DNA of 51,663 bases from the NCBI GenBank assembly GCA_020425635.1, contig JAGQRJ010000710.1:1-51663 (forward strand), in the 5' to 3' direction. The DNA comes from Planctomycetota bacterium (GTDB lineage: Bacteria > Planctomycetota > J058). The first letter of the stretch is position 1; each line of letters begins with the position of its first letter. Both the position numbers and the translations under genes were made by a program. Shown piece after piece: positions 1 to 15,886 of this stretch. The notes under the pieces are model-generated. The model saw only the letters and a list, made by a program, of their open reading frames with translations. It was not told the DNA's origin and ran no database searches.

Positions 1-81
1 CGTCGCGCGGGAGCCCGTCGCGCGGGAGCCCGTCGCGCAGGACCCCGACGAGGATCCCGTCGAGGAGCCCGTCGCGGAGCC
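1..81 (+). repeat. Degenerate tandem repeat inside the truncated TPR gene, encoding an acidic Pro-rich linker (VAREP VAREP VAQDP DEDP VEEP VAEP)
   Basis: cgtcgcgcgggagcc occurs twice in tandem (1-15, 16-30). It is followed by cgtcgcgcaggaccc (31-45) and 12-nt variants at 46-57, 58-69 and 70-81. The repeat is in frame with the downstream TPR ORF. Confidence 0.8.
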
Positions 82-1084
82 CCCGCCGGGTCCCGCCGCG
101 ACCCCGGCGCCCACCGCGGTGCAGTGGCTGCAGCGGGGGCAGGCGAAGCTCGAGGCAGGGCGCTTCGCCGAGGCGCTCCGCGACCTCGACCGCGCGTTGG
201 AGCTCGACCCCGACTGGGCGGCCGCGCTCACCGACCGCGGGGTGTGCAAGATCCAGCTCGGGCGCTTCGAGGACGCGATCGCGGACTTCGACCGCAGCCT
301 GGCCCAGCGCCCCGACCAGGTCGTCGCGCTCTCGAGCCGCGGCTTCACGCACGCCAAGCTCGGGGGCCAGGCCCAGGCGCTGCGAGACTTCGACCGCGCC
401 CTCGAGCTCGACCCCGGCCACCTCCCCGCGCGCTTCAACCGGGGCATGCTCTACGCGAGCCTGGGCGACCACGAGGCCGCGATCGCCGACTTCAGCCGCG
501 TCACCGAGGACAACCCCCAGGACGCGTATGCCTGGGCCTACCTCGGGGAGCTGAAGCTCAAGCTCGGCCAGAACGAGGCCGCGCTCCCCGACCTCGACCG
601 CGCCCTCGCGCTGAACCCCGCCGAGGCGGGCGCCTGGGCCAACCGCGGCTGGGCCAAGGCGCGCCTGGGGCGCTCGGCGGAGGCCCTCGTCGACCTGAAC
701 CGCTCCCTCGAGCTGCTCCCGAACCAGGTCACGGCGTTGACCAACCGGGCGACGGTGTTCGCCCAGCTCGAGCGCAACCTCGACGCCCTCGCCGACTTCG
801 ACCGCGTGCTCGAGCTCGACCCCCAGCGACTCCTGGCCTGGCGGAACCGCGCCGCGCTCAACGTCAAGCTCGAGCGCTACCCCGAGGCGATCGCCGACTA
901 CGACCGCGCGCTCACGCTCGACCCCAAGGACGCGGTGGCCTTGGGAAACCGAGGTTGGCTCTTGTCCCGGCTCGGGCGCCACGACGCCGCGGTCCGCGAC
1001 TTCGACCGCGCGCTGGCGCTCGACCCCCAGGTCCCCGGCGTCGCGGAGTGGCGCGCCGCCGCGCTGCGCGAGCTCGAGAAGTAG
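2..1084 (+). CDS. TPR repeat protein, 5'-truncated by the window edge
   Basis: The frame is open from nt 2, and the tracked GTG at 119 is internal to it. About nine 34-aa units carry a recurring A-x-x-D-F/L-D/N-R-A/S-L-E/A-L-D/N-P signature. Stop TAG at 1082-1084. Confidence 0.85.
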   Translation, partial: VAREPVAREPVAQDPDEDPVEEPVAEPPPGPAATPAPTAVQWLQRGQAKLEAGRFAEALRDLDRALELDPDWAAALTDRGVCKIQLGRFEDAIADFDRSLAQRPDQVVALSSRGFTHAKLGGQAQALRDFDRALELDPGHLPARFNRGMLYASLGDHEAAIADFSRVTEDNPQDAYAWAYLGELKLKLGQNEAALPDLDRALALNPAEAGAWANRGWAKARLGRSAEALVDLNRSLELLPNQVTALTNRATVFAQLERNLDALADFDRVLELDPQRLLAWRNRAALNVKLERYPEAIADYDRALTLDPKDAVALGNRGWLLSRLGRHDAAVRDFDRALALDPQVPGVAEWRAAALRELEK

Positions 1085-1161
1085 GCCGCGCCCCGGCCCG
1101 GGTAGCCGACCGTCCCGGGGCCGCGCGCTCCGGAGCGCATGCTCGCCGGTTAAGCTGGCGC

Positions 1162-2634
1162 ATGGACGAGCTGAGCGAAAATGGCAAGCGACGGATCTAC
1201 TCCGTCCTCGTGCGCGTCGCCAACGCCGACGGGCACATTGACGTCACCGAGCGCGCGCTCTTGGAACGCGTCGCCGGAGCCTACGGGATCGCGCCCGACG
1301 AGGCTCAACGGCTCGAGCGCGAGGCACCCACCGCCGAGTGGCGGATCGGCAACGCCGACGTAGAACGGCGCGCCCTGGCCCGCGGTATGGTCCAAGTCGC
1401 TGCCGCCGACGGTGTGCTCGATCCGCGCGAGCTCGAGCTCTTGAAGCGGATCGCCGCCGCTGTGGGACTGCCTGCGGCAGCCCTAGAGCGAGCGATCGCG
1501 ACTGCCTTGGCCCACGCGCAGCCCACGGCTCAGGGGGACCCTCCGAAGTGGGGGCTCGACGTGTGCACCGAGGGGGAGTGGATTCCCTTGATCGATCAAG
1601 GGGAGTTCCTGGAGCGCGCGGTCGCGGTGCTGAGAGAGAAGGACCGCTGGTCGCAGGTGGAGGCCGTCGACCGCCGCCGCGAGGGTCGAATGTCGGTCGC
1701 CTTCGCCTTGCAGGTCATGGCGCACCCGCTGCTTGGCGAACAGCCGGCGCTGGTCGCGCGCTACCGGTCGCCGCACGGCGAGATGATCAGCGAGCGGAGC
1801 GTGGCCTTCCTGGTGCACCCGTTCGAGCTGATCCCTCAACTGGTCGAGGAGTTCGGCAGCGCCGAAATGCGCGGGGCGATCTTGGAGAAGCTCGGGTGGC
1901 TTCCTCTGCCTCGAGTCGAGCCGCACGCGCACGCGCGACTCCAGGCGCAGAGGGTAGCCGCCTGCCGCACTGGCGACCGCGCTGCCCTGGCAGCCACGGC
2001 CAAGGAACTCTATGCCCTGGCCGAGACGACCTGCGGCGCCCAGCTCTTGATCGACGCCAGCGAGCTGCTGCTCTTGGCGGGAGAGGAGCAGGCAGCGTTC
2101 TCGCTGATCTTGGCAGGCGCAGAGTCGTTTCCGGACAAGCCGCTCAGGATCCGCTCGTCGAGCCTCGGCGCGATCGGGCGCCTGGGCCAGGAGTTCGTGC
2201 TGCAGGTGGTCCTCTGGCTGGGGGCCGAGTGTCCAGGGGGCCGGGACCCCGGACGGGTCTACGCGGTGCTCTCCTTCCTCGGAGAGAGCATGAGCTACCC
2301 GCTGGTCCGTGGACCGAGCGACGTCGAACCCCTGGCTGATCCAGACCTGCTGAGCTCCCTCGTAGGGCAGGTTTTCGGCGCGGTCTCCTCGGCGCTCGTG
2401 TGGCAGGCTGCCGTATGGCAGTCGTATCTGGCGGGGCGCACCGTCTCCGCCGAGCGCCTGCAAGACGGACTGGGGCGCGTCCGCCCCTACGCGGAGCTCC
2501 TCCTCGGCTCCGACGACTGCGCGGCTCTAGGGCATGAGTTCGTGCAGCCCGAAGGAGGCAAGCGCCGGTTGACCGAGCTGCTCGACCGGGCGCGCGAAGC
2601 GGTCCAGCACCAGGTCTGGCCGTCCGAAACTTGA
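1162..2634 (+). CDS. TerB-like (tellurite-resistance/DjlA N-terminal type) domain protein with an uncharacterised ~350-aa C-terminal region
   Basis: ATG at 1162 lies inside the long shadow ORF 124..2634. The N-terminus has two helical half-repeats: RRIYSVLVRVANADGHIDVTERALLERVAGAYGI and ALARGMVQVAAADGVLDPRELELLKRIAAAVGL. I do not recognise any family in the C-terminal part. Confidence 0.6.
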   Translation: MDELSENGKRRIYSVLVRVANADGHIDVTERALLERVAGAYGIAPDEAQRLEREAPTAEWRIGNADVERRALARGMVQVAAADGVLDPRELELLKRIAAAVGLPAAALERAIATALAHAQPTAQGDPPKWGLDVCTEGEWIPLIDQGEFLERAVAVLREKDRWSQVEAVDRRREGRMSVAFALQVMAHPLLGEQPALVARYRSPHGEMISERSVAFLVHPFELIPQLVEEFGSAEMRGAILEKLGWLPLPRVEPHAHARLQAQRVAACRTGDRAALAATAKELYALAETTCGAQLLIDASELLLLAGEEQAAFSLILAGAESFPDKPLRIRSSSLGAIGRLGQEFVLQVVLWLGAECPGGRDPGRVYAVLSFLGESMSYPLVRGPSDVEPLADPDLLSSLVGQVFGAVSSALVWQAAVWQSYLAGRTVSAERLQDGLGRVRPYAELLLGSDDCAALGHEFVQPEGGKRRLTELLDRAREAVQHQVWPSET

Positions 2635-2728
2635 GCGCGGCAACTCCGCACCGCGCCCGCTCCCGAGTGGCCCGGCCTCGAGTCGACCGCTCGCGCGCCA
2701 GCGCATAGGATCGCGGCAGGAGGCGGCG

Positions 2729-4489
2729 GTGCCGGCGGAGGACTGGATCGAAGTCGCGCGCAGCGACGACCTCGTCGGCGCGGGGCCGCTGGCGGTGTCG
2801 GCCCGCGGGCTCGACCTGGTGCTCGTGCGGAGCGGCGCCGAGCTGCGCGCCTTCGACGGGGTGTGCCCGCACCAGGGCACGCTCCTGGGCGAGGGCGAGC
2901 TCTGTGACGGTCAGCTCGTGTGCCGCACGCACCGCTGGCGCTTCGACGCGACCCGCGGCCAGCGCGACGGCGGGCCCGAGTGCCTGGCGCGCTATCCGGT
3001 GCGCGCGCGGGACGGGCGGATCTTCGTGGACCTCGGGGCGCGGCGGGTCGCGCCGAGCGCCCAGGGGCGCCGCCGGTGGCACGACCTCCCGGGCCCCCGC
3101 GGCGTGCCCGGGTTCGGCAGCGCGCTCCAGCTCGGCCGCGGCCAGCTCCACGCCCGCATGGAGCAGTGGAGCGAGGCCTACGGTCCCTACTGCGGGTTCA
3201 AGCTGGGGAGCACCCCGGTGTTCTTGATCTCCGACGCCGAGCTCACGAGCCGGGCCCTGCGGGCGCGGCCCCAGGTCTTTCGCCGGCTGAGCAAGATCGA
3301 GGCGGTCTTCCGCGAGCTCGGCGTGGAGAGCGTGTTCACCGCCGAGGGCGACGGGTGGCGTCGACAGCGCCGCCTGACCATGGGCGCGCTCTCGGAGCCC
3401 AACCTGGCGGGCTTCTACCCGGTCTTGCGCAGGGTGCTCGCGCGCCTGCTGCGCCATTGGCAAGCGAAGGCCGCGCGCGGCGAGGCCTTCCTCATTCAAG
3501 AGGACCTGCTGCGCTTCTCGGCCGACGTGATCACGAGCCTCGCCTTCGGGCGCGACGTCAACACGATCGAGGGCGGGAACGACGTGTTCCAGGACAAGAT
3601 CGCCACGATCCTGGTGGCCCTCTCCCGGCGCATGGCGGCGGTGGTCCCCTACTGGCGCTTCGTCTCGCTGCCGCGCGACCGCGCGCTCTACCGCGCGCTC
3701 GGCGAGCTGCGCGAGTGGGCGGCGACGATCGTCGCCGAGACCCGAGCCTCCCTGGCCCAGGACCCCGGGCGGGCGCCCGAGAACTTCCTCGAGGCCATGC
3801 TCACCGCGACCGACGCGGAGGGGCGGCCCTTCGACGAGCCGGTGATCCTCGGCAACGCGCTGACCATGCTCCTGGCGGGAGAAGGGCTCACCGGCAACAG
3901 CCTGGCCTGGTCGGTGCACGAGCTCTGCGACGCGCCGGCGGCGGTGGCGGCGCTGCGCGCGGAGGTCGACGGCGTGCTGGGGGGCGAGGCCTTCCCCGCC
4001 GACTTCGCGGCGACGAAGGCGCTGCGCTACGCCGACGCCGTCACCCGCGAGACCCTGCGCCTGCGCCCGGTCGCGCCCTTCTCGCTCCTGGAGGCCACCC
4101 GCGACACCGCCCTCGGCGACCTCGACGTCCGCGCCGGCGAGGTCTTGATCTGCCTCTACCGCGGCCCCGCGACCCGCGACGAGGTCGGCCCCGACGCCGG
4201 GCGCTTCTCGCCCGAGCGCTGGCTCGACGAGGACCCCGAGGCGCTCGCCAAGCTCAACGCGGTGCACATGCCCTTCGGCTCCGGCCCGCGGATCTGCCCC
4301 GGGCGCTCGCTGGCCCTGCTCGAGCTGCGGGCGGTGCTCTCGCTGCTCTACCGGAACTTCGACGTGGAGCGGGTGGGCGCACCCGAGGAGGTCGGCGAGA
4401 CCTTCCGCTTCGCGGCGGTCGAGCCGGAGGGCTTGCGCGTGCGGCTGCGCGCGCGCGCAGCCGCGCCCGCGGCCCCGCGGCCGGCCTGA
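2729..4489 (+). CDS. Rieske [2Fe-2S] ferredoxin domain fused N-terminally to a cytochrome P450 (586 aa)
   Basis: GTG start is preceded by AGGAGG (2720-2725). Rieske motif: C-P-H-x16-C-x2-H (GVCPHQGTLLGEGELCDGQLVCRTHRW). P450 motifs: ETLRLRP (ExxR), FSPERW, and the heme loop FGSGPRICPGRSLA. Confidence 0.85.
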   Translation: MPAEDWIEVARSDDLVGAGPLAVSARGLDLVLVRSGAELRAFDGVCPHQGTLLGEGELCDGQLVCRTHRWRFDATRGQRDGGPECLARYPVRARDGRIFVDLGARRVAPSAQGRRRWHDLPGPRGVPGFGSALQLGRGQLHARMEQWSEAYGPYCGFKLGSTPVFLISDAELTSRALRARPQVFRRLSKIEAVFRELGVESVFTAEGDGWRRQRRLTMGALSEPNLAGFYPVLRRVLARLLRHWQAKAARGEAFLIQEDLLRFSADVITSLAFGRDVNTIEGGNDVFQDKIATILVALSRRMAAVVPYWRFVSLPRDRALYRALGELREWAATIVAETRASLAQDPGRAPENFLEAMLTATDAEGRPFDEPVILGNALTMLLAGEGLTGNSLAWSVHELCDAPAAVAALRAEVDGVLGGEAFPADFAATKALRYADAVTRETLRLRPVAPFSLLEATRDTALGDLDVRAGEVLICLYRGPATRDEVGPDAGRFSPERWLDEDPEALAKLNAVHMPFGSGPRICPGRSLALLELRAVLSLLYRNFDVERVGAPEEVGETFRFAAVEPEGLRVRLRARAAAPAAPRPA

Positions 4490-4569
4490 CGACCTCAAGT
4501 TCTTGTCGACAACGCGAGAGATCCCTCTAAGATCGATCACGCGACGCGAAGTATCGGCACCACAGGCAG

Positions 4570-7500
4570 TTGAGAGTGCCCGGCAGCAACGACGACGTCC
4601 TGATCCCCTTCTTGAGCTGGGCCGATCGCCACCCAGATCGGCGGCTGTTCTGCTTTCTCGACGCGCAGGGTCGCGAGGTCGAGCAGCACACCTACGGCGA
4701 GTTCGTCGTCCGCACCGGCGCCGTGGCCGAGTTCTTGCAGCGCTCGCTGCCGAAGCTGCGCGCCGGCGATCGGGTGCTCCTGGCCTACCCGCCGGGCCTG
4801 GACATGATCACCGCGTTCTTCGCCTGCGTGCGCCTGGGCTGGATCCCGGTGCCGGTCTACCCGCCCACCAGCCACGGCTACGACGGCGCCCTCGCGAAGA
4901 TGAACTTCATTGCGCAGGACTGCGGCGCGTCGGCGGTGCTCACCACCCGCGCCTTCTACTGGTCCATGCGCGTGAACCGGGTGCGGCACCGGATCCGCAC
5001 CCGCTCCCTGCGGCGCGACCCGGTGAGCGCCCTGCCCTGGGTGCGGACCAGCGACGCCCCGCGCGCCCAGCGCCCCGAGTTCGAGCCGGGCCACAGCGAG
5101 ACCTTGTTCCTGCAGTACACCTCCGGGTCGACCCGCAACCCGCGGGGCGTGATGGTTTCGCACCGCAACCTGCTGAGCAACTGCGAGGCGGTGGTCGACC
5201 ACCTGCCCGTCGGGGTCTCGTGGCTGCCGCAGTACCACGACATGGGGCTGATCGGCTACTACCTGTTCTTTGCCATGAAAGGCGGGACGACCTACGGCTT
5301 CAGCCCCGTGGACTTCATTCAGCGCCCGCTGCTGTGGCTCGAGACGATCACCAAGTACCGCGGCACCGCGGCCTCGGCCCCGGACTTCGCCTTCGCTTAC
5401 TGCCTGCGCGAAGACAAGGTCCCCACCGACGCGCTCGCCCGCCTGGACCTGAGCTCGCTGCGCTTCTTCATGAACGCCGCGGAGCCCGTGCGGGCGGCCA
5501 ACGTGCGGGCCTTCCTCCAGCGCTTCCGCCCCGCCGGGCTGCGCCCCGAGGTCTTCTTCTCCGCCTTCGGGCTGGCGGAGTACACCCTCGCGGCCACCAA
5601 CTACGGGCGCCGGATCCTGACCGTCGACGCCGCGGCCTTCGCCGGCGGGAGCGTGGTCCCCTCGGCGGCGCCCTTGGGGCCGGCCGGGAAGGAGCTCGTG
5701 AGCTGCGGCGCCCCGCTGCCCGGGGTCGAGCTGCGGATCGTCGACCCCGAGACCCGCGCCCCCTTGCCCGCCGAGCAGGTCGGCGAGATCTGGCTCGCGG
5801 GGCCGAGCCGCTGCGCCGGCTACTGGGGTCAGCCCCAGGCCACCCGCGAGGTGTTCGAGGCCCGCCTCGCCGGCGACCCGAGCACCCCCTGGCTGCGCAC
5901 CGGCGACCTGGGCTTCCTCCACGGGGAGGAGCTATTCCACTGCGGCCGGCTCAAGGACCTGGTGATCCTGCGCGGGCAGAACTACTACCCCCAGGACGTG
6001 GAGGCGATCGTCCAGCAAGACCCGCGCGTGCGCGCCGGCTGCACCGCCGCCTTCTCCGTCGTCGCCGACGAGGCCGCCGAGGAGGCGCTGGTGGTCGTGG
6101 CCGAGCTGCGCGACCCCGCCCGGCTGCCCGACGCCGCGGCGCTCAGCCGCCAGGTGCAGGCGGCGCTGGGGATCGCGGTCGACACCCTGGTGTTCATCCG
6201 CGCGCGGACCCTCGCCAAGACCAGCTCCGGCAAGGTCTCGCGGCACCGGGTCAAGCGCGCCTACCTCGAGGGCGAGCTCGAGGCGGTCGCGGTCGTCCGC
6301 CCGGGCCTGGGCGAGGCCAGCGGGTCCGCCGCCGCGGCGACGGACCCCGTGCACGAGGTCTTCGCCCGCTACGGGCTGCGCGGCACCGAGGAGTGGACCC
6401 TCGCGGAGTCGGGGATCGACTCCCTGCGCCTGGTCGAGCTCGCCCAGGACCTCAAGGGCGTGCTCGTCGAGGCCGGCCTCGAGGAGCTCAGCGAGGCGCT
6501 CACCGTCCAGAGCCTGCAGCAGCTCGCGATCGCCGAGCTCGGCGCGCTGCTGACCCAGGTGGCCGAGGGCCCGAGCGTGGCCCGGGTCCGCTTCCGGCGC
6601 GTGCTGACCCGGATCGCCAAGGAGCACCACGCCTTCGAGCAAGAGCTCATGGAGCGGGACGCCCGGCTCAACTTCGACCCGGCGTGCTTGCCCGTGTTCA
6701 GGGGCCTCTCCGAGGCCCCTCGCCCTCGGAGCGAAGCTCCTCGGGCTCAGCCCAAGGGGCCGCAGGCGCCGGGCTCCGAGGCGCCAGCGGCGGGCAGTGT
6801 CTTCCTCACCGGCGGGACCGGCTTCTTCGGGCCCTTCCTCCTGCTCGAGCTGCTGCGGCAGCTCCCCGAGCGCCCGGTGCTCGTGCTCGTGCGCGCCGAG
6901 ACCCCCGAGGCCGGCAAGCAGCGGCTACTCGAGGCCCTGGCCACGGTGCGTCCGCTGGCGGAGCTCCCCCCGGCCTGGCTCGAGCGGATCCAGCCCGTGT
7001 GCGGCGACCTGGCCCGCACCAACCTGGGGCTCACGACCGCCGCCTGGGAGGCCCTCGCCGAGCAGGTGGGCACGATCTACCACAACGGCGCCCTGGTGAA
7101 CTACCTCTACGACTACGCCACCATGCGCGCCACCAACGTGGCCGGCACGAACGAGGTCCTGCGCCTGGCCATGAGCCACCGGCCCAAGCAGCTCAACCAC
7201 GTCTCGAGCACGTTCATCTTCGGCTGGTCGACCAAGGAGGTGCTCTGGGAGACCGACCCCAACGAAGACCGCGAGCTGCTCGACTTCGGCTACAGCCAGT
7301 CGAAGTGGGTCGCCGAGCAGGTCGTGCGCGACGCCATGGCGCAGGGCCTGCAGGCGCGGATCTTCCGCCCCGCGCTGATCACGCCCTCGGTGGCCGGCGG
7401 CGGCGGGTCCTTCGACATCGCCGTGCGCCTGCTGGCCTTCATGGTCAAGCACCAGCTCACCACCACCGCCCAGAACCAGGTCAGCTTCTGCCCCGCCGAC

Positions 7501-7905
7501 CTGGTCGCGCGGAACATCGTCGCGATCGGCGAGCAGCCCGCCAGCGTCGGCCTGACCTTCCACGTGACTCGCGACGACTACGCCAACATGAGCGACGTCA
7601 CCGCGATCCTCGCCCAGCTCGGCGAGCTGAAGTTCACCGCCTACGACCTCGACCGCTTCGTGACCGAGGTCACCGAGCGCTGCGTCCCCGGGGACATTCT
7701 GTTTCCGCTGCTCGACTTCTTCCTGCGCTCCATGGACAACATCGCGGCCATGGAGTTCAAGCGCTACGACAACGCCGCCTACCGGCGCTTCCGCGCCAGC
7801 TCGCCCGAGGGCCTGGCCGACCCCCCGCTCCGCGACGTGGTCGGCGGACTGTGGCGCTTCATGAAGCGCCGCGGGCTGATCGCCGCGCCGGCCGGGGTCG
7901 TCTAA
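4570..7905 (+). CDS. Carboxylic-acid-reductase-like tridomain enzyme: fatty acyl-AMP ligase/adenylation domain, carrier protein and thioester reductase (1111 aa)
   Basis: Adenylation motifs: YTSGSTRNPRGVMVSH, TGDLGF, GRLKDLVILRGQNYYPQDVE, KTSSGKVSR. Carrier-protein Ser lies in LAESGIDSLRLVEL. Reductase domain has the Rossmann motif VFLTGGTGFFG and YSQSKWVAE (YxxxK). Start is TTG 4570, with GTG 4576 as an alternative. Confidence 0.85.
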   Translation: MRVPGSNDDVLIPFLSWADRHPDRRLFCFLDAQGREVEQHTYGEFVVRTGAVAEFLQRSLPKLRAGDRVLLAYPPGLDMITAFFACVRLGWIPVPVYPPTSHGYDGALAKMNFIAQDCGASAVLTTRAFYWSMRVNRVRHRIRTRSLRRDPVSALPWVRTSDAPRAQRPEFEPGHSETLFLQYTSGSTRNPRGVMVSHRNLLSNCEAVVDHLPVGVSWLPQYHDMGLIGYYLFFAMKGGTTYGFSPVDFIQRPLLWLETITKYRGTAASAPDFAFAYCLREDKVPTDALARLDLSSLRFFMNAAEPVRAANVRAFLQRFRPAGLRPEVFFSAFGLAEYTLAATNYGRRILTVDAAAFAGGSVVPSAAPLGPAGKELVSCGAPLPGVELRIVDPETRAPLPAEQVGEIWLAGPSRCAGYWGQPQATREVFEARLAGDPSTPWLRTGDLGFLHGEELFHCGRLKDLVILRGQNYYPQDVEAIVQQDPRVRAGCTAAFSVVADEAAEEALVVVAELRDPARLPDAAALSRQVQAALGIAVDTLVFIRARTLAKTSSGKVSRHRVKRAYLEGELEAVAVVRPGLGEASGSAAAATDPVHEVFARYGLRGTEEWTLAESGIDSLRLVELAQDLKGVLVEAGLEELSEALTVQSLQQLAIAELGALLTQVAEGPSVARVRFRRVLTRIAKEHHAFEQELMERDARLNFDPACLPVFRGLSEAPRPRSEAPRAQPKGPQAPGSEAPAAGSVFLTGGTGFFGPFLLLELLRQLPERPVLVLVRAETPEAGKQRLLEALATVRPLAELPPAWLERIQPVCGDLARTNLGLTTAAWEALAEQVGTIYHNGALVNYLYDYATMRATNVAGTNEVLRLAMSHRPKQLNHVSSTFIFGWSTKEVLWETDPNEDRELLDFGYSQSKWVAEQVVRDAMAQGLQARIFRPALITPSVAGGGGSFDIAVRLLAFMVKHQLTTTAQNQVSFCPADLVARNIVAIGEQPASVGLTFHVTRDDYANMSDVTAILAQLGELKFTAYDLDRFVTEVTERCVPGDILFPLLDFFLRSMDNIAAMEFKRYDNAAYRRFRASSPEGLADPPLRDVVGGLWRFMKRRGLIAAPAGVV

Positions 7906-9260
7906 TGGCGATCTCCAACGTGCCGCACGTGTCGCGGACCACGGCCTTTCTCGACGCCAAGCACATGGTGCAGAACCCGGTCGAGGTGTTCGAGCGCTAC
8001 CGGGCGAGCCTCGGGCCGACCTTCACCTTCCACTTCGGCGGGGCCAAGCGCGCGGTCGTCTCGACCGAGCCCGAGTTCTTGCAGCACGTGCTCAAGACCC
8101 ACCACGGCAACTACGTGAAGTCCCACATTCAGACCAAGCACATGGTCGAGTTCCAGGGGGTGGGCCTGGTCAACAGCCACGGCGAGGAGTGGCTGCGCCG
8201 GCGCAAGCTCGTGGCCCGGGGCTTCACGCCGAGCCGCATGGCGAGCATGCTCCCCCTGCAGATCGAGGTGCTCGACGGGCTCATGGCCCGCTTCGAGGCC
8301 GACGCGGCCGCGGGGCCGGTCGACGTCTACGAGCACATGGTGCGCTTCACCCTGGGCATGGTCGGGCGCTCGATCTTCGGGCGCGCCGCCACCGACGCCG
8401 AGCTGCAGCAGATCGCCGACGCGATCAGCGAGATCCAGGCCTACATCGTCGAAATGATCGTGCAGCCCTACCTGATCCCGTGGTTCCGGATCACGGGCAA
8501 GGCCCGGCGCTACCAACGGATCCGGCGCGAGGCCGACGCGGTGGTGCTGCGGCACATCGAGGCCCGGCGGGCCACGAGCTCGGTGGGCTACGACTTCCTC
8601 AAGCTGCTGCTCGAGGAGCCCTTCCACGACACCCAGAGCCCCATGGAGGAGGGCCAGGCGCTGGTCGAGGCCCTGCAGCTCATGGTCGCGGGCAACGAGA
8701 CCTCGTCGATCGCCGCCACCTGGTTGCTCTACCTGCTGGCGATCCACCCGGAGCACGCCGCGCGGATCCAGGCGGAGGTCGACGCCCACGTCGGCCAGGG
8801 GCCGATCACCGCCGCCTCGCTCAAGGAGCTCGAACACACGGTCCGCTGCCTGCACGAGGCGCTGCGGCTCTACCCGCCGTTTTGGATGATCGACCGGATC
8901 GCGCTCCAGGACGACGAGGCCGCCGGGGTGAAGATCCCCAAGGGCGCCATGGTGATCCCCTACATTTACGGCACGCACCGCAACACCGCGCTCTGGGACG
9001 ACCCCGAGCGCTTCGACCCCGACCGCTTCCTCAAGCCCGCGGTCCAGGCGCGGCACCCCTTCGCGCACGTGCCCTTCGGCGGCGGCCCCCGGCTGTGCGT
9101 GGGCAACAGCATGGCGATCTCCCAGATCACGCTGATCGTGGCCACGCTCTTGCGCCGCTACGACCTGCGCTACGAGCGCGACGAGCCGGTGCGGACCCGG
9201 CCCATGATGCTCCTGCGCCCCGACGGCGACGTGCCCGTGCGCTTCGTCCCGAGGGCGTAA
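7905..9260 (+). CDS. Cytochrome P450 (451 aa)
   Basis: ATG 7905 overlaps the upstream stop (TAATG). Motifs: I-helix MVAGNETSS, EALRLYPP (ExxR), FDPDRF, and the heme loop FGGGPRLCVGNSMA. This is the only real part of shadow ORF 4503..9260. Confidence 0.9.
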   Translation: MAISNVPHVSRTTAFLDAKHMVQNPVEVFERYRASLGPTFTFHFGGAKRAVVSTEPEFLQHVLKTHHGNYVKSHIQTKHMVEFQGVGLVNSHGEEWLRRRKLVARGFTPSRMASMLPLQIEVLDGLMARFEADAAAGPVDVYEHMVRFTLGMVGRSIFGRAATDAELQQIADAISEIQAYIVEMIVQPYLIPWFRITGKARRYQRIRREADAVVLRHIEARRATSSVGYDFLKLLLEEPFHDTQSPMEEGQALVEALQLMVAGNETSSIAATWLLYLLAIHPEHAARIQAEVDAHVGQGPITAASLKELEHTVRCLHEALRLYPPFWMIDRIALQDDEAAGVKIPKGAMVIPYIYGTHRNTALWDDPERFDPDRFLKPAVQARHPFAHVPFGGGPRLCVGNSMAISQITLIVATLLRRYDLRYERDEPVRTRPMMLLRPDGDVPVRFVPRA

Positions 9261-10327
9261 TGTCGCGCTGGGCCTGGCTCCGACTCGCCCGGATCGCGAG
9301 GCGCTGCGGAGGGGTCGACCTGAGCCGGCTCCCCCGCGCCCTGCGCCTGCTGCTGCGCTACGGGCTCCTCGCGCCGCTGCGCTGGGCCCAGCGCCGACGC
9401 CTGGCCCAGCACCCGAGCCCGGCCCTCGGCGAAGACCCGGTGTTCGTGCTCGGGCACTGGCGCTCGGGCACGACCTACCTGCAGCAGCTCTTGGGCGCCG
9501 ACCCGCGGCACACCACCTCGACCCTGTTCACCAGCCTGTTCGCCGACGTGTCGACCTTTCGCTGGCTCGAGGGGGCCATGAACGCGGTGGCCAAGGCCCT
9601 GGGCCTGCGCCACCCGATCCAGCGTCAGGCCTTGCAGCTCGGGCTGCCGGCCGAGGCCGACATTGGCCTCTGCCTGGGCCTCTTGAGCGAGCACGCCTAC
9701 ACCTGGGGGCACGTCTTCCCCCGCGCGTTCCCCGCCTGGCTCGAGACCCACGTGTTCCAGCTCACGCCGGGCGTCGCGGGCCGCTGGCTCGACGACTACG
9801 AGCGGCTCATGCGCCGGGTCTCGGCCCTCGCCGGCGGCAAGCGGGTGGTGGTCAAGAGCCCGGGCGACACGGCGCGGATCCCCTGGCTGCTCGAGCGCTA
9901 CCCCAGCGCGCGCTTCGTCTACCTGCACCGCGACCCGCTCGCCGTGTATCACTCCACCCGCTACCTGTGGAGCGTGATCCGGAGCGAATACGGCCTGCAG
10001 CGGGTCGACGACGCCACGGTCCACCGCTGGATCGTCGACACCTACGCCCGGCTGCTCAGGCGCTACCTGAGGGACCGCGCGCGGGTGCCCGCCGGTCAGC
10101 TGGTGGAGCTGCGCTTCGAGGCCCTGCGCCGCGACGGCCCCGGCGCGCTGGCCGGCGTCTACGACGCGCTGGGCCTGGGGCCCGTGCCCGAGGCCGTGCT
10201 GGCCGAGCTGCGCGCCAGCGCCAGCCACACCCCCACGCGCTACGACACCGCGCCCGCGCTCGAGCACGAGCTGCGCGACGCCTGGGCCTTCGCCTTCGCG
10301 GCCTGGCCCGAGGAGACGGCTGCCTGA
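9260..10327 (+). CDS. PAPS-dependent sulfotransferase family protein (355 aa)
   Basis: ATG 9260 overlaps the upstream stop (TAATG). The 5'-phosphosulfate-binding loop is GHWRSGTTYL. The 3'-phosphate region is VVVKSPGDTARIPWLLERYPSARFVYLHRDPLAVYHS. Confidence 0.8.
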   Translation: MSRWAWLRLARIARRCGGVDLSRLPRALRLLLRYGLLAPLRWAQRRRLAQHPSPALGEDPVFVLGHWRSGTTYLQQLLGADPRHTTSTLFTSLFADVSTFRWLEGAMNAVAKALGLRHPIQRQALQLGLPAEADIGLCLGLLSEHAYTWGHVFPRAFPAWLETHVFQLTPGVAGRWLDDYERLMRRVSALAGGKRVVVKSPGDTARIPWLLERYPSARFVYLHRDPLAVYHSTRYLWSVIRSEYGLQRVDDATVHRWIVDTYARLLRRYLRDRARVPAGQLVELRFEALRRDGPGALAGVYDALGLGPVPEAVLAELRASASHTPTRYDTAPALEHELRDAWAFAFAAWPEETAA

Positions 10328-11211
10328 TGAAGAAGGGCATTCCCAAGCTGGAGGGCACGACCTGGGTGATCACGGGCGCCGCGAGCGGGATCGGGCTCGA
10401 GCTCACGAAGCAGGCCCTGGCCCAGGGCGCCCGGGTGGCGCTGGTCGACGTCGACGCCGAGGGCCTCGAGCGCGCGCTGGCCGCCGGCGGCGCCCCCGAG
10501 CGCTGCTCCACCCACGCGGTGAACGTGGCCGACCGCGGCTCCATGCTCGCGCTCCCCGAGGCGGTGCTCGCCCGGCACCCGGCGGTGCACGTGCTCGTCA
10601 ACAACGCCGGGATCGGCTACGAGGCGGCCTTCCCCCAGACGAGCCTCGAGACCTGGGACCGCGTCATGGGCGTGAACTTCTGGGGCGTGGTCCACGGCCT
10701 GCACGCCTTCCTCCCGCACCTGGCCAAGGCCCCCAAGGCCCACGTCGTGAACCTCTCGAGCCTGTTCGGGATCGTGGGCATGCCCGGGCAGACCGCCTAC
10801 TGCGCGAGCAAGTACGCGGTGCGCGGGCTCAGCGAGTGCCTGTGGGAGGAGCTGCGCACGACCACCGTGGGCCTCACGGTGGTGCACCCCGGCGGCGTGG
10901 CCACGAACATCATGAAGACCTCAGAGGGCGACGACCCCGAGCTCATGGCCAAGCTCGCCGACTGGTACGAGGCCCACGCCATGGCGCCGGCGAAGGCGGC
11001 CAAGAAGATCCTGAAGGCGGTGCGCAAGGGCAAGCCCCGGCTGCGGATCACGCCCGAGGCCTACCTCGCCGACTACGTCAAGCGCCTGCTCCCCGTGAGC
11101 GGCAACCGGCTGATCAGCGCCCTCGTGATCCGGGGGCTGGGGCTCTCCTACATGCGCGAGGTCCGCAGCGAGCAGTGGGAGCGGACCATGGTCCGCGGAG
11201 AGGGGCCGTGA
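10327..11211 (+). CDS. Short-chain dehydrogenase/reductase (SDR, 294 aa)
   Basis: ATG 10327 overlaps the upstream stop (TGATG). Motifs: TGAASGIG cofactor loop, NNAG, and the catalytic S...YCASK (YxxxK). Confidence 0.9.
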   Translation: MKKGIPKLEGTTWVITGAASGIGLELTKQALAQGARVALVDVDAEGLERALAAGGAPERCSTHAVNVADRGSMLALPEAVLARHPAVHVLVNNAGIGYEAAFPQTSLETWDRVMGVNFWGVVHGLHAFLPHLAKAPKAHVVNLSSLFGIVGMPGQTAYCASKYAVRGLSECLWEELRTTTVGLTVVHPGGVATNIMKTSEGDDPELMAKLADWYEAHAMAPAKAAKKILKAVRKGKPRLRITPEAYLADYVKRLLPVSGNRLISALVIRGLGLSYMREVRSEQWERTMVRGEGP

Positions 11212-12683
11212 GCCCGACCTCCGTCGAGGTCTTGATCGTGGGCGCGGGGGTGAGCGGGATCGGCGCGGCGATCGAGCTCCTGCGCCGCGGGCGGCGCGAC
11301 CTCCTCGTGCTCGAGGGCGCCCAGGGGCTGGGCGGGACCTGGCGCGACAACACCTACCCCGGGATCGAGGTGGACATTCCGGTCAGCTCCTACTGTTACC
11401 GCTTCGAAATGGGCTTCCCCTGGTCGCGGCTCTACGCCCCGGGGCACGAGGTGCTCGCCTACCTGCGCCACTGCGCGACGAAGTACGGCGTCGACCCCTA
11501 CGTCCGCTACGGCTGCCGGGTGCGCTCGGCCGCCTTCGACGAGGGGACGAACCGCTGGAGCGTGGAGCTCGCCGACGGGCGCCGCTTCGAGAGCCGCTTC
11601 CTGATCGCGGCCACGGGGCTGTTCTCCACGCCCCGGGTGCCGCCCTTCCCGGGGCTCGAGCGCTTCGAGGGCACGACCCTGCACACCGCGCGCTGGGACC
11701 ACGCGGTGTCGCTCGCGGGCAAGCGGGTGGGCGTGGTCGGCACCGGCGCCTCGGCGGTCCAGGTCGTGCCCCACGTGGCCCGGGAGGCCAGCGCGCTCAC
11801 CGTGTTTCAGCGCACGCCGATCTGGATCTCCCCGCGCTTCAACCCCGCGCTCCGCCGCGCGGCGCCCAGCGCGCGCCCGACCCGCCGGCAGCGGCTGCGG
11901 CGCTGGGTGAGCGAGCTGGCCCTCGAGCTGCTGACCTACGCCGTGGTGCACTACGGCCGCATGCGGCTCTGGCTCGGGGGCTTCCAGCGCGTGGTCCGGG
12001 CCTGGATGCGCCGGCAGGTGCGCGACCCCGCCGTGGCCCGAAAGCTGCTCCCCGACTACGACCTCGGCTGCAAGCGCCCCACCTCCTCCTCCGACTACCT
12101 GGCGACCTTCAACCTCGAGCACGTGACCCTCGAGACCTCGCCGATCCGCGAGCTCGTCCCCGAGGGCGTGGCCGTCGAGGGCGGCGCGGTCCACGCGCTC
12201 GACGTGCTGGTGTTCGCCACCGGCTTCCAAACCACCGAGCAAGGCAACCAGCCCTCGTTCCAGGTGCGGGGCCGCGGCGGCGTCGAGCTGCACGACTTCT
12301 GGGAGCGAAATCGCTTCCAGAGCTACGCCGGGATCGCGGTGCGCGGCTTCCCCAACCTGTTCCTGACGCACGGCCCCTACAGCGGCGGCTTCAACTGGTT
12401 CGCCATGCTCGAGACCCACCTCGGCCAGATCCTGGGCTGCCTCGAGCACGCCTGGGCCACCGACCGGCGCCGGGTCGAGGTCAACGCCGAGGCCTACCGC
12501 CGCTACGTCGCCGCCACCGCGGAGCTGGCCGAGCGCACCGTGTTCAAGGCCGGCCACTGCGCCAGCGCCCGCAGCTACTACGTCGACCGCCACGGCGACG
12601 CCTCGCTCCCCTCCCCGCGCACGCCCTTTCAGCGCGACCGCTGGGCCAAGGCCCGCGGCGTCGCCGACTTCGACTTCGCCTGA
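11208..12683 (+). CDS. Type I Baeyer-Villiger (class B flavoprotein) monooxygenase (491 aa)
   Basis: GTG 11208 overlaps the upstream stop (GTGA). Motifs: FAD loop VGAGVSGIG; BVMO fingerprint FEGTTLHTARWD (FxGxxxHxxxW[P/D]); NADPH loop VGTGASAVQ. Confidence 0.85.
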   Translation: MSPTSVEVLIVGAGVSGIGAAIELLRRGRRDLLVLEGAQGLGGTWRDNTYPGIEVDIPVSSYCYRFEMGFPWSRLYAPGHEVLAYLRHCATKYGVDPYVRYGCRVRSAAFDEGTNRWSVELADGRRFESRFLIAATGLFSTPRVPPFPGLERFEGTTLHTARWDHAVSLAGKRVGVVGTGASAVQVVPHVAREASALTVFQRTPIWISPRFNPALRRAAPSARPTRRQRLRRWVSELALELLTYAVVHYGRMRLWLGGFQRVVRAWMRRQVRDPAVARKLLPDYDLGCKRPTSSSDYLATFNLEHVTLETSPIRELVPEGVAVEGGAVHALDVLVFATGFQTTEQGNQPSFQVRGRGGVELHDFWERNRFQSYAGIAVRGFPNLFLTHGPYSGGFNWFAMLETHLGQILGCLEHAWATDRRRVEVNAEAYRRYVAATAELAERTVFKAGHCASARSYYVDRHGDASLPSPRTPFQRDRWAKARGVADFDFA

Positions 12684-12700
12684 GCCGCGGGTCGCGGCGC

Positions 12701-12719
12701 GCGCGCGAGGCACGCGCGC
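12701..12719 (+). terminator. GC hairpin directly after the operon stop codon (possible terminator or attenuator)
   Basis: gcgcgcg-aggca-cgcgcgc forms a 7-bp perfect stem, followed by tt. It lies 18 nt after the stop at 12681-12683. A second small hairpin, ccgcg-ggt-cgcgg, is at 12685-12697. There is no real U-tract. Confidence 0.3.
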
Positions 12720-12787
12720 TTCGCAGCAGGATCCGGCTGGGGGTGCGCAGAGGGGGCTCGTCCTGCAGTATGGGTAGCGGAGGAAGC

Positions 12788-15727
12788 ATGTCGGGCGCCC
12801 CCAGCTCCGTGGAAGCAGCCGTGGTCGGCCACGCCCTGAACCGGGGCTGGCTGCGCCGTGAGCAGCTCCGCGAGGCGCTCTTGCTCCAGGGTCAGCTCGA
12901 GGCCTCGGGTCGGCCCACCCCCCTGCTCGCGATCCTGCTCGCGCGCTACCTGCGCGCGGAGCACGTGGAGGAGCTGAAGGCGGTCTACCACCGCGCCGCG
13001 CTGAGCGCGGGGGAGGCGGCGCACGCCGCGGCGGGGCCGACCCTGCCTCCGCCCGCCGCAGCCCTCCCGCACGACTGCCTCCGGCGCTCGGGCGAGGAGC
13101 TGAAGCGACCGCCCGAGCGAGACCCGGAGGCCGTGCGGCGCTTCATCGCGGCCTGCGAAGCGTCGACGCTGGAGTGCGAGCCCCCACAGCCGGCGCCCGG
13201 AGCCCCACCGGCGCCGGCTCCCGGCGAGGAGGCCGTGCGCGCGGCGCGCGCGCGCGGGCGGCGGGCCTACCGCGAGGCTCACCAGCTCGACCCGCACTTC
13301 GCGCCCCACGCCGACGACGCCCTGGAGCAGGTCGAGGTGCTGGGAGAAGGCGGCATGGGCGTCGTCTACCGCGTCCGCGACCGGCGCCTCGGTCGGGAGG
13401 CCGCGCTGAAGCTCGTGCGCAGCGACCAGGCCGACGAAGACGGCGTGCTCCGCTTCCGGCGCGAGGCAGAGATCACGGCCCGGCTGACCCACCCCTCGAT
13501 CCCGCCGGTCTACGAGGCCGGCACGAACGCCCAGGGCCTCCACTACATGCTCATGCGCGTCGTCGAGGGCCAGCCCCTGGCGCGGCACATCAAGGACCTG
13601 CACGAGGCGCCGGGCGACGGGTCGCGCGCGGGGACGAGCCAGCGCGAGCTCCTGGAGGCCCTGGTCAAGGTGGGCGAGGCGGTGGCCTACGCCCACGAGC
13701 GAGGGATCATTCACCGCGACCTGAAGCCGCAGAACGTGTTGATCGGGCAGTTCGGCGAGGTCATGGTCGTGGACTGGGGGCTGGCCCGAGACCTCTCGTT
13801 GGGCGCCGCCGACGAAGCGCTGCTCCGGCGTAGCCTCGACGGGGCCCTGCGGTCGCGGCCGGGAGTACCCGAGCTGACCCAGGAGGGGTCGGTGCTCGGC
13901 ACCCCGGGCTACATGCCCCCCGAGCAGGCCGAGGGCAAGCCCGTCGACACCCGCGCCGACGTCTTCGCGCTGGGCGCGCTGCTCTGCTGCGTCCTCACCG
14001 GTCGCCCACCGATCGTGGGCACCACGGTCTTCAACAAGCTCTACGCCACCCAGCAGGGGAAGATCGAGCTCCCCCGCGACCGCCGAGCGGACGTGCCGCC
14101 CGAGCTGAACTCCATCGCGGCCCGAGCCCTCGCCATGGCCGCGGAGGATCGCTACCCGAGCGCCGCGGGCTTCGTCGCGGACCTCCGGGCCTACCTGGCC
14201 GGCGAGGCCGTGTCCGCGCATCGCTACAGCCTGGGCGAGCGGGCGCAGCGCGCCGCGCGGCGACACGTGACGCTGCTGGTCGGTGCGTCCGTGGGGGCGC
14301 TCGCCCTCCTGGGGATCGGCCTGGCCCTGGCCTTCGCCGCGCGGCAGCAAGCCAAGGCGAAGCAGGAGGAGACCGAGCGGCGACTCGCCGAGGAGGCGCG
14401 AGCCGAGTCCGAGCGCAGCTCCCGCGCCCTGGCCGACGAGAAGGCGCGGACCCTGGTCTACACCGACGCGGGTCGCTTGAGGATCCTCGCGCGCCAGGCC
14501 GCCGAGCTGGGCGTGAGCTCGGAGGAGGTCGACGCGCTGCAGCGCTGGCTCAACGAGGCCCGGGCGCTGCTGGACGAGGCGCGCGTCGAGACCCACCGCG
14601 GTCGCCAGCGAGCGCTCCAGGCGACTCCGGCGCAGACCATGGCCCAGCAAGCCGAGCTCGAAGCGCTGGAGCAACTCCTCAGCGGCCTCGTGGTGCTGGC
14701 GCGCGTGCCCGCGCCCGGGCAGCCCCCGCTGGCGCAGACCGTGGCCGGGGTCGAGGCGCGCCTGGCGCTCGCGCGGACCGTCCGCGAGCAGACGGTCAGC
14801 GGCCCCGCGGCCTCGAGCGCGTGGGCGGAGGCGAGCCGCGCGATCCAAGAGAGCCCCCGCTACTCGGGCCTGCGGCTCAGCCCGGTGGAGGGGCTCGTGC
14901 CCCTCGGCGCCGACCCCGACTCGGGCCTGTGGGAGTTTTGGCACGTGGCCTCGGGCGAGCGCCCGGAGCGCGGCCCCGAAGGGCACCTCCGCCCCACGGA
15001 GCAGAGCGGGCTCGTGTTCGTGCTGGTGCCCGCGGGGAGCTTCCGCATGGGCTCCCTCGCCGCGAGCGACGAGCAGCCCGTGCACGAGGTGCGGCTGAAC
15101 GCCTTCCTGCTCTCCAAATACGAGGTGACCCAAGGCCAGTGGTTGCGCGCCACGGGGAGGAACCCCAGCAAGTTCTCCCCCGGCGGCTCCAAGGTCACGC
15201 TGCTGCACCCCGTCGAGCGGGTGAGCTGGCACCAATGCGCGAACGCCCTGAAACGGCTGGGCCTGACGCTGCCCAGCGAGGCCCAGTGGGAGTATGCCTG
15301 CCGCGGGGGCACGACGAGCCCGTGGTGGACGGGCGCCGAGCGCACCTCGCTCCAGGGCGCGGGCAACCTGGCCGACGGCCACTGCAAGCGCAACGGGGGC
15401 CCAGGGGGCTGGGCCTACGACGAGTGGCTCGACGACGGGTGGACGCCCCACGCGCCGGCCGGCAGCTTTCGCGCGAACCCGTTTGGGCTGCACGACATGG
15501 TGGGGAACGTCTGGGAGTGGGTGCAGGACAGCTACCACGACTCCTACGAAGGCGCGCCCCGAGACGGCTCCGCGTGGGTCGACGCCGACGAGGCCGAGCG
15601 CGTCCTCCGCGGCGGCAGCTACAGCACCGTCGCAGACGCGAGCCGCTCGGCCAGCCGCCGCAGGAACGCGCCGGCCGGTCGGAGCGACTTCCTCGGACTC
15701 CGGCCCGCGATCGTGATCCAGCGCTAG
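12788..15727 (+). CDS. Transmembrane Ser/Thr protein kinase with extracytoplasmic coiled coil and C-terminal FGE-sulfatase (SUMF1-like) domain (979 aa)
   Basis: ATG 12788 is preceded by GGAGGA. Kinase motifs: GEGGMGVVYRV, AALKLV, HRDLKPQNVL, VDWGLARD, GTPGYMPPEQ. TM helix: VTLLVGASVGALALLGIGLALAFAA. A charged coiled coil follows. FGE-like motifs: HPVERVSW, EAQWEYACRGG, NPFGLHDMVGNVWEWV, RVLRGGSY. Confidence 0.9.
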   Translation: MSGAPSSVEAAVVGHALNRGWLRREQLREALLLQGQLEASGRPTPLLAILLARYLRAEHVEELKAVYHRAALSAGEAAHAAAGPTLPPPAAALPHDCLRRSGEELKRPPERDPEAVRRFIAACEASTLECEPPQPAPGAPPAPAPGEEAVRAARARGRRAYREAHQLDPHFAPHADDALEQVEVLGEGGMGVVYRVRDRRLGREAALKLVRSDQADEDGVLRFRREAEITARLTHPSIPPVYEAGTNAQGLHYMLMRVVEGQPLARHIKDLHEAPGDGSRAGTSQRELLEALVKVGEAVAYAHERGIIHRDLKPQNVLIGQFGEVMVVDWGLARDLSLGAADEALLRRSLDGALRSRPGVPELTQEGSVLGTPGYMPPEQAEGKPVDTRADVFALGALLCCVLTGRPPIVGTTVFNKLYATQQGKIELPRDRRADVPPELNSIAARALAMAAEDRYPSAAGFVADLRAYLAGEAVSAHRYSLGERAQRAARRHVTLLVGASVGALALLGIGLALAFAARQQAKAKQEETERRLAEEARAESERSSRALADEKARTLVYTDAGRLRILARQAAELGVSSEEVDALQRWLNEARALLDEARVETHRGRQRALQATPAQTMAQQAELEALEQLLSGLVVLARVPAPGQPPLAQTVAGVEARLALARTVREQTVSGPAASSAWAEASRAIQESPRYSGLRLSPVEGLVPLGADPDSGLWEFWHVASGERPERGPEGHLRPTEQSGLVFVLVPAGSFRMGSLAASDEQPVHEVRLNAFLLSKYEVTQGQWLRATGRNPSKFSPGGSKVTLLHPVERVSWHQCANALKRLGLTLPSEAQWEYACRGGTTSPWWTGAERTSLQGAGNLADGHCKRNGGPGGWAYDEWLDDGWTPHAPAGSFRANPFGLHDMVGNVWEWVQDSYHDSYEGAPRDGSAWVDADEAERVLRGGSYSTVADASRSASRRRNAPAGRSDFLGLRPAIVIQR

Positions 15728-15886
15728 TCGGCCTCGTCGCGCAGGCGGGGTCGGGTGCGGGTCCGGGGACTGGCGCGGGAGGGCGTCGAGGTTGGACACG
15801 GCGAAGCGCACGACCGCAGCAGCGCGACTTAGGGCGCCCGGTCCCGGGCCCCGCGCTTGCTCCAGGACCCTCCACGGAGGGACTCC

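Follow-up and report, generated by a model that had tools for sequence, protein, structure and literature searches.

A six-gene block from a Planctomycetota bacterium as a candidate cassette for a sulfated, oxygenated lipid

What is made by an enzyme set that joins a Rieske-P450 fusion, a fatty acyl-AMP ligase (FAAL)-carrier-reductase, a second P450, a sulfotransferase, a short-chain dehydrogenase/reductase (SDR) and a type I Baeyer-Villiger monooxygenase (BVMO)? The question is raised by six adjacent genes, here called g1 to g6, at positions 2729-12683 of contig JAGQRJ010000710.1 from a Planctomycetota bacterium (metagenome-derived assembly GCA_020425635.1). The whole 51,663-nt stretch analyzed is referred to as the window. 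An earlier note on this DNA had described the genes as a six-gene translationally coupled operon for a sulfated, oxygenated lipid. In the present analysis, the block is read with modest confidence as a self-contained biosynthetic cassette that produces a sulfated lipid from a fatty acid. The most likely product class, being the most economical one, would be a sulfated, oxygenated fatty-alcohol-type lipid. The earlier note did not recognize the combination as a characterized pathway, and searches of the open-access full-text literature likewise found no counterpart.

Mechanical lists of open reading frames (ORFs) were crowded because of the 72% G+C content of the window, and genes were called via third-position G+C (GC3). 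Six intact ORFs were obtained, all on the + strand, each with a single terminal stop and a GC3 of 0.96-0.99. These are g1 (2729-4489; Rieske-P450 fusion, 586 aa), g2 (4576-7905, with an alternative TTG start at 4570; FAAL-carrier-thioester reductase), g3 (7905-9260; cytochrome P450, 451 aa), g4 (9260-10327; 3′-phosphoadenosine-5′-phosphosulfate (PAPS)-type sulfotransferase, 355 aa), g5 (10327-11211; classical SDR, 294 aa) and g6 (11208-12683; type I BVMO, 491 aa). The overlaps of 1 or 4 nt reported to join the last five genes were found as exact strings at all four junctions, with the start of each gene overlapping the stop of the preceding one: TAATG at 7903-7907 (g2/g3), TAATG at 9258-9262 (g3/g4), TGATG at 10325-10329 (g4/g5) and GTGA at 11208-11211 (g5/g6), all on the + strand. 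All six domain assignments of the earlier note were reproduced by Pfam, and every diagnostic motif was intact in a motif scan. Pfam analysis of the six proteins gave no ketosynthase (KS), acyltransferase (AT), condensation (C) or thioesterase (TE) domain, in agreement with the view that the system is neither a polyketide synthase (PKS) nor a nonribosomal peptide synthetase (NRPS).

Synteny in related genomes, on which the earlier note had made its proposal depend, was clear. The same six-gene order was recovered from four other independent sources, namely a Planctomycetota metagenome-assembled genome (MAG; GCA_041402045.1, locus L001), JGI metagenomes (L002-L004), and the loci L092 and L093, and the overlaps of 1 or 4 nt were kept at most g2-g6 junctions. 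DNA homology between the window and the syntenic loci starts at 2692-2718, 11-37 nt before the g1 start, and stops at 12697-12704, within about 20 nt of the g6 stop, while the genes flanking the block are not orthologous among these loci. Such sharp boundaries between unrelated flanks mark the block as a discrete conserved unit. Two departures were observed in L001. Two extra genes, occupying about 1.6 kb, lie between g1 and g2, one of them a DUF6036 nucleotidyltransferase-like gene (L001 3555-4082), and the g3/g4 junction (L001 ~9640-9990) is interrupted by 468 nt, within which a G+C-rich unit of ~110 nt is repeated in tandem about three times.

The entry enzyme of the proposed pathway is g2, in which three domains were delimited on the + strand: an adenylation domain of the FAAL type (~4615-6288; Pfam AMP-binding, 3.7e-62), a putative, divergent carrier domain fused directly downstream (~6328-6555, with the phosphopantetheine serine codon at 6421-6423) and a thioester reductase domain (~6799-7767; Pfam NAD_binding_4, 7.9e-57). 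The motif scan detected YTSGST and SGK in the adenylation domain, the GIDSL serine in the carrier, and GGTGFFG and YSQSK in the reductase. The core motifs of the ANL superfamily (A3 YTSGST, A8 GRxKD and the A10 lysine) are present and invariant in eight orthologues. With NCBIfam models, the adenylation domain scored 300-334 bits against FAALs vs about 147 bits against long-chain fatty acyl-CoA ligases (FACLs). Its ten best solved relatives are all FAAL-type adenylation enzymes (7r7e the best, with 3kxw, FadD32 and 3pbk among them), and the alignment with FAAL structures is contiguous over residues 22-571, with no curated NCBIfam FAAL cut-off reached. By sequence comparison, then, the domain appears to be of the FAAL type, closer to FAALs than to acyl-CoA ligases. 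For the reductase domain, TIGR01746 gave 233.6 bits, above the curated cut-off of 213.35, GGTGFFG and YSQSK were invariant in eight orthologues, and the closest solved structure was the MxaA reductase. The GxDSL serine of the carrier was likewise invariant in eight orthologues from three phyla. The earlier description of g2 as a carboxylic acid reductase (CAR)-like enzyme stood for its adenylation-thiolation-reductase (A-T-R) architecture and had to be abandoned for its adenylation domain, which is FAAL-type. Membership of the CAR family itself (NF041592) was rejected, at 123.2 bits vs a cut-off of 1300 with a match that covers the reductase domain only.

The next enzyme, g3, is an E-class P450 of the CYP3/4/97/102-like clan (Pfam p450, 5.6e-85), and the motifs AGNETS, EALR and FGGGPRLCVG were all recovered in the motif scan. 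The g4 product belongs to Sulfotransfer_3 (PF13469; 7.3e-30, 105 bits vs a cut-off of 27), and its PAPS-binding motifs, RSGTT in the 5′-phosphosulfate-binding loop (5′-PSB) and RDP in the 3′-phosphate-binding segment (3′-PB), are invariant in 34 homologues. Sequence matches in the PDB were limited to 2zq5 and 2z6v, the mycobacterial STF1/STF9 structures. An AlphaFold model of g4 (predicted local distance difference test, pLDDT, 94.5) gave template modeling (TM) scores of 0.68 to STF9/STF1 (2z6v, 2zq5) vs 0.38-0.40 to the sulfotransferase domains of CurM and olefin synthase (OLS). Judged from its motifs and this model, g4 is a predicted PAPS-dependent sulfotransferase with a mycobacterial Stf1/Stf9-like fold.

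The last two genes encode a classical SDR and a BVMO. In g5 (Pfam adh_short, 3.5e-46) the motifs TGAASGIG, NNAG and YCASK are present; orthologues 86-89% identical were found in L001-L004, an SDR gene occupies the g5 position in L092, and L093 has a partial ORF there. Pfam gave FMO-like/Pyr_redox_3 for g6, a member of the short (~490-510 aa) COG2072 group whose best solved relatives are phenylacetone monooxygenase (PAMO) and cyclohexanone monooxygenase (CHMO), at E ~1e-73. The type I BVMO fingerprint FEGTTLHTARWD (FxGxxxHxxxW[P/D]) and the long motif GGTWRDNTYPGIEVD ([A/G]GxWxxxx[F/Y]P[G/M]xxxD) were both detected by the motif scan, as was the first Rossmann motif (GAGVSG); the second (GTGASA) was read from the translation. 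Orthologues 78-81% identical are encoded in L001-L004, and more widely thousands of ~500-aa BVMO-like proteins are related to g6 at about 55% identity. The names of g6 homologues were dropped as a clue to substrate, being generic "CzcO" or oxidoreductase labels only. By their distribution, both g5 and g6 are clade-specific additions to the cluster.

The same holds for g1, a fusion of a Rieske [2Fe-2S] ferredoxin domain (residues 6-85) to a P450 (residues 121-552; Pfam Rieske 1.4e-14, p450 5.9e-70). The Rieske model PF00355 scored 54 bits vs a cut-off of 20.3, and the cluster ligands CxH...CxxH are present as CPHQG...CRTH within residues 46-68. In the P450 part, the motif scan recovered the heme loop FGSGPRICPG and the ExxR motif; the I-helix is atypical (AGEGLT) and lacks the canonical D/E-T acid-alcohol pair. 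The Rieske-P450 fusion is common to all of the best 120 of 1152 g1 homologues (E<=1e-20; P0089-P0208), which are about 50% identical, and among the matches listed such fusions occur in Gemmatimonadota, Myxococcota, Acidobacteriota and Methylocella MAGs. No paper describing a natural Rieske-ferredoxin/P450 fusion was found in the open-access literature.

Whether g1 belongs to the operon at all has to be weighed against the possibility that the operon consists of g2-g6 and that g1 is a separately transcribed neighbor whose function, for instance that of a general hydroxylase, may be unrelated. The notion of six translationally coupled genes held for g2-g6 and failed for g1, which is uncoupled and is separated from g2 by a spacer of 80-86 nt. 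This spacer carries a sigma-70-like promoter match, TCGACA-16-TAAGAT (4506-4533, + strand), which contains the palindrome TGTCGACA and is the sole promoter-like match in 2400-13000 vs 0.2 expected; going by sequence, transcription of g2-g6 may start internally from here, and the "six-gene operon" may then really be g1 alone followed by a five-gene operon. L002 and L093 carry the two hexamers unchanged, which adds little weight because these loci are about 85% identical to the window throughout. The idea of extra constraint on the spacer was dropped, its identity of 85% being at the level of coding DNA (84-87%). A separate g1 would also agree with the two-gene gap of about 1.6 kb that parts g1 from g2 in L001 and with the two g1 homologue loci inspected (L090 and L091, ~50% identity), both of which have unrelated gene contexts outside any such cluster. 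Against it, g1 orthologues 70-75% identical occupy the same position, immediately upstream, in all four of the loci that reach that far, among them L001, L002 and L093. The genes upstream of g1 vary, L002 and L093 sharing one, while homology already begins 11-37 nt before the g1 start. The separation of g1 is accordingly considered unlikely, though a real possibility, and g1 is retained here as a member of the proposed cassette.

How far the association of the genes extends beyond close relatives was judged by following the sulfotransferase in a scan of species-representative genomes and another of metagenomes, and then by tblastn with all six proteins. Where the sulfotransferase was at least 37% identical to g4 and enough contig was available, a g3-type P450 and/or a g2-type FAAL-carrier-reductase was adjacent at nearly every locus (L005, L006, L008, L009, L011-L015, L094, L095 and L097-L101), most of which hold both partners. 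The P450s, which adjoin the sulfotransferase in about 15 loci, are 47-59% identical to g3, and the FAAL-carrier-reductases are 43-51% identical to g2. These loci are mostly from Bacteroidota MAGs and unbinned metagenome contigs, with Bacteroidia, Flavobacteriia, Chitinophaga-labeled and Bacteroidota MAGs as recorded taxa. Exceptions are L007 and L124, where the sulfotransferase stands alone; the contig of L096 ends too early for a verdict. The linkage was lost at identities under about 36%, save for the two weak variants L125 and L158. The distant Bacteroidota-type clusters have no g1, g5 or g6. On these comparisons, long-range selection has acted on the trio g2-g3-g4 and not on all six genes, whereas g1, g5 and g6 were taken up within a single Planctomycetota clade, each from a huge generic family.

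The Bacteroidota-type clusters contain other genes in addition to the trio. Immediately before the g2 orthologue, and coupled to it, lies a gene for a HetI/Sfp-type phosphopantetheinyl transferase (PPTase), in keeping with a carrier domain in g2, and a DesA-like desaturase (5e-60) and a second desaturase-family protein are encoded. A conserved hydrophobic protein of ~252-256 aa (MYSVR.TTK.HGNT...), whose copies are 44-65% identical, adjoins the core trio in L005 (11111-11881, -), L006 (6467-7237, -), L008 (8984-9742, -), L009 (11994-12764, +), L015 (~11052-11792, -) and L098 (17433-18188). It gave no significant Pfam match and no NCBIfam match, and its gene was not found in the window or in close relatives of the block. 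An SDR and a flavin-containing monooxygenase (FMO) encoded in L009 were considered as g5 and g6 orthologues and rejected, the FMO being ~22% identical to g6 and tblastn aligning the SDR significantly neither with g5 nor with the window. A reduced version was found in Rhodoblastus acidophilus DSM 142 (L021; NZ_WNKS01000039.1, 305-8111), a cultured alphaproteobacterium; nearly all carriers are uncultured. Here a g2-type FAAL-carrier-reductase (45%) is divergent from a g4-type sulfotransferase (36%), the pair is followed by an HlyD and ABC-2 exporter, and the contig stops at the place that a P450 gene might occupy. This arrangement fits a reductase product that serves as the sulfation substrate and a sulfated product that is exported.

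Two rivals of the fatty-alcohol sulfate reading concern what g4 and g2 act on. According to the first, which is improbable, the sulfate introduced by g4 is a transient leaving group for elimination, ether formation or cyclization, and the final lipid is sulfate-free. Leaving-group sulfotransferases do occur among the structural neighbors of g4 (the CurM and olefin-synthase domains, retinol dehydratase and LGS1), and the ~255-aa membrane protein, always present in Bacteroidota-type clusters, could use an activated alkyl sulfate. However, g4 is far closer in fold to STF1/STF9 than to the CurM/OLS domains, which were absent from the sequence search, and no thioesterase, KS or ketoreductase (KR) is present to build a beta-hydroxyacyl-ACP. 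The membrane protein, moreover, is missing from the window and its close relatives. CurM-like olefin formation was rejected as the principal explanation on the same TM scores, on the lack of TE, KS and KR, and on the lack of a sequence-level match.

According to the second, the acid activated by g2 would not be an ordinary fatty acid but an isoprenoid, quinone-side-chain, hopanoid, steroid-type or aromatic acid; in the manner of cyp128-stf3, the end product would then be a sulfated terpenoid or quinone. Several g4 homologues are named "omega-hydroxy-beta-dihydromenaquinone-9 sulfotransferase" by JGI, a P450 adjoining a sulfotransferase is the cyp128-stf3 layout, and both P450s of the block also resemble carotenoid- and terpenoid-oxidizing P450s (CYP97, CYP170). 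The Stf3 name, however, is an automated label on proteins ~42-43% identical to g4 (a third is 34% identical) and not demonstrated orthology, the adenylation domain was FAAL-like in every comparison, and the Bacteroidota-type clusters encode fatty-acid desaturases, the DesA-like one at 5e-60. A substrate of this kind is held to be quite improbable.

In the preferred reading, of a sulfated fatty-alcohol-type lipid, the FAAL domain of g2 would adenylate a free long-chain fatty acid and load it onto its own phosphopantetheinylated carrier domain. The thioester reductase would release the chain reductively as an aldehyde and, most likely, take it on to the primary alcohol. MxaA has a four-electron reducing domain, and alcohol release is favored for this reason and because the trio-only clusters encode no other reductase. 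The g3 P450 would hydroxylate this chain, either at its omega terminus or internally, and g4 would move sulfate from PAPS onto one hydroxyl, giving a hydroxy-alkyl sulfate or an alkanediol (di)sulfate. In the Planctomycetota clade, g1, with its own ferredoxin-like domain, would add a second, secondary hydroxyl, which g5 would oxidize to a ketone, and g6 would insert an oxygen beside this ketone to give an in-chain or subterminal ester. The order P450, SDR, BVMO, the ester product and the choice of the hydroxyl that is sulfated are pure inference, and the substrate, the number of reduction steps, the regiochemistry, the step order and whether the product serves as a surfactant, an envelope lipid or a signal are inferred as well. 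Chemical precedent is provided by the fatty alcohol disulfates of Entamoeba: to make them, a fatty acid must be reduced, hydroxylated at the omega position, for which a P450 is the usual enzyme, and acted on by sulfotransferases (PMC6801973).

Besides the uncoupled g1 and the scattered contexts of its homologues, several points weigh against this scheme. The PP-binding match of the g2 carrier (PF00550) is weak, at 16.8 bits (E=0.008) under a cut-off of 20.8. Genes for PAPS synthesis, a P450 reductase, a PPTase, an exporter or an esterase were not found within the window, so the redox partners, PPTase and PAPS supply must be encoded elsewhere in the genome. A close sulfotransferase homologue (L007, 46% identical) lacks the partners. 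The substrate classes of the P450s and the BVMO are unreadable from sequence, their nearest relatives being generic; g5 might reduce the aldehyde instead, and g6 might oxidize an aldehyde and not a ketone. That the block is instead catabolic or detoxifying, acting on alkanes, alkyl compounds or xenobiotics via subterminal oxidation, is very improbable: hydroxylase, alcohol dehydrogenase and BVMO do form the classical route of subterminal alkane oxidation and g6 falls in the broad COG2072 group, but enzymes such as a FAAL-carrier-reductase and a PAPS sulfotransferase spend energy on synthesis, the block contains no esterase, sulfatase, beta-oxidation gene or regulator, and the conserved core has neither SDR nor BVMO.

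Outside the block, a Ser/Thr kinase fused to a formylglycine-generating enzyme (FGE)-sulfatase-like domain is encoded directly downstream (12821-15727), and a stand-alone FGE-like protein is encoded at 31439-32158. The fusion was rejected as a cluster member, not being conserved beside the block in related loci. The apparent sulfur theme of the downstream genes is probably coincidental, as neither FGE-type gene is conserved beside the cluster in relatives. The remaining contig (21349-29504 and 36493-46042) holds respiratory and housekeeping genes, among them one for a class II ribonucleotide reductase and two blocks, the first encoding NorQ/VWA/heme-copper oxidase subunit I/cytochrome c and the second molybdopterin oxidoreductase/4Fe-4S/multi-heme cytochrome c. 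The G+C content is 71-75% in 1-16000, comprising the operon and its immediate flanks, vs 63-72% in 16001-51663, and the shift does not coincide with the operon boundaries.

All six enzymes belong to well-known families and neither a new kind of protein nor a new mechanism is involved; the combination is an orphan "NRPS-like" lipid cluster family. Tentatively, and somewhat short of an even chance, the g2-g3-g4 trio represents an undescribed cross-phylum bacterial route to alkyl or alkanediol sulfate lipids, present in Planctomycetota and Bacteroidota and, in reduced form, in an alphaproteobacterium. It would correspond, in bacteria, to the Entamoeba disulfates and might be a microbial source of the alkyl sulfates found in the environment, and the six-gene version would add a Baeyer-Villiger step leading to a sulfated lipid with an ester group, of a kind not known from any organism. 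The sulfate-ester lipids known from bacteria are few and mostly mycobacterial (PMC6801973). If the route holds, a new lipid or surfactant class would be added to the envelope and exometabolite chemistry of widespread uncultured aquatic Planctomycetota and Bacteroidota, and a function would be assigned to a recurrent "NRPS-like" gene cluster family. Candidate enzyme types would become available for the unassigned reduction and hydroxylation steps in the formation of the Entamoeba disulfates, together with a small portable enzyme set (FAAL-reductase, P450 and sulfotransferase, optionally with SDR and BVMO) for the biological production of functionalized alkyl sulfates. The gain would lie in chemistry and annotation and not in a new biological principle. 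For the alkyl-sulfate hypothesis, Rhodoblastus acidophilus DSM 142 is a tractable organism.

Among known systems, CAR, the MxaA reductase domain and Myxococcus ElbD resemble g2 in their A-T-R organization with an NAD(P)H thioester reductase and aldehyde or alcohol release; g2 differs from CAR in its FAAL-type adenylation domain, from ElbD in lacking an acylglycerolphosphate acyltransferase (AGPAT) domain, and from MxaA in lacking upstream PKS/NRPS modules. The sulfotransferase-thioesterase (ST-TE) systems of CurM and olefin synthase share with the block a FAAL loading domain (the best structural match of the g2 adenylation domain, 7r7e, is of this kind) and a Sulfotransfer_3-type sulfotransferase acting on a lipid chain. 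Unlike them, the block has no KS, AT, KR or TE, g4 stands alone as a protein with the Stf fold, and release would be reductive and not decarboxylative. Subterminal oxidation has precedents in alkane catabolism and in wax-ester mycolate formation. The hydroxylase, alcohol dehydrogenase and BVMO activities it requires could be supplied by g1 or g3, g5 and g6, whereas here these enzymes, whose sequential action is presumed, form part of an anabolic cassette that includes a sulfotransferase but lacks an esterase. The cyp128-stf3 pair of Mycobacterium tuberculosis, which forms sulfomenaquinone (S881), likewise places a P450 gene beside an Stf-family PAPS sulfotransferase and follows a hydroxylate-then-sulfate logic on a lipid, but its substrate is a menaquinone already made and no FAAL-carrier-reductase accompanies it, whereas g4 is linked to such an enzyme and g3 falls among the E-class, CYP3/4/102-like P450s. 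Finally, the fatty alcohol disulfates of Entamoeba histolytica require the steps proposed for the core trio, namely conversion of a fatty acid to a fatty alcohol, omega-hydroxylation and PAPS-dependent sulfation; this organism is a eukaryote that encodes no P450, and its likeness to the trio lies in the chemistry required (PMC6801973).

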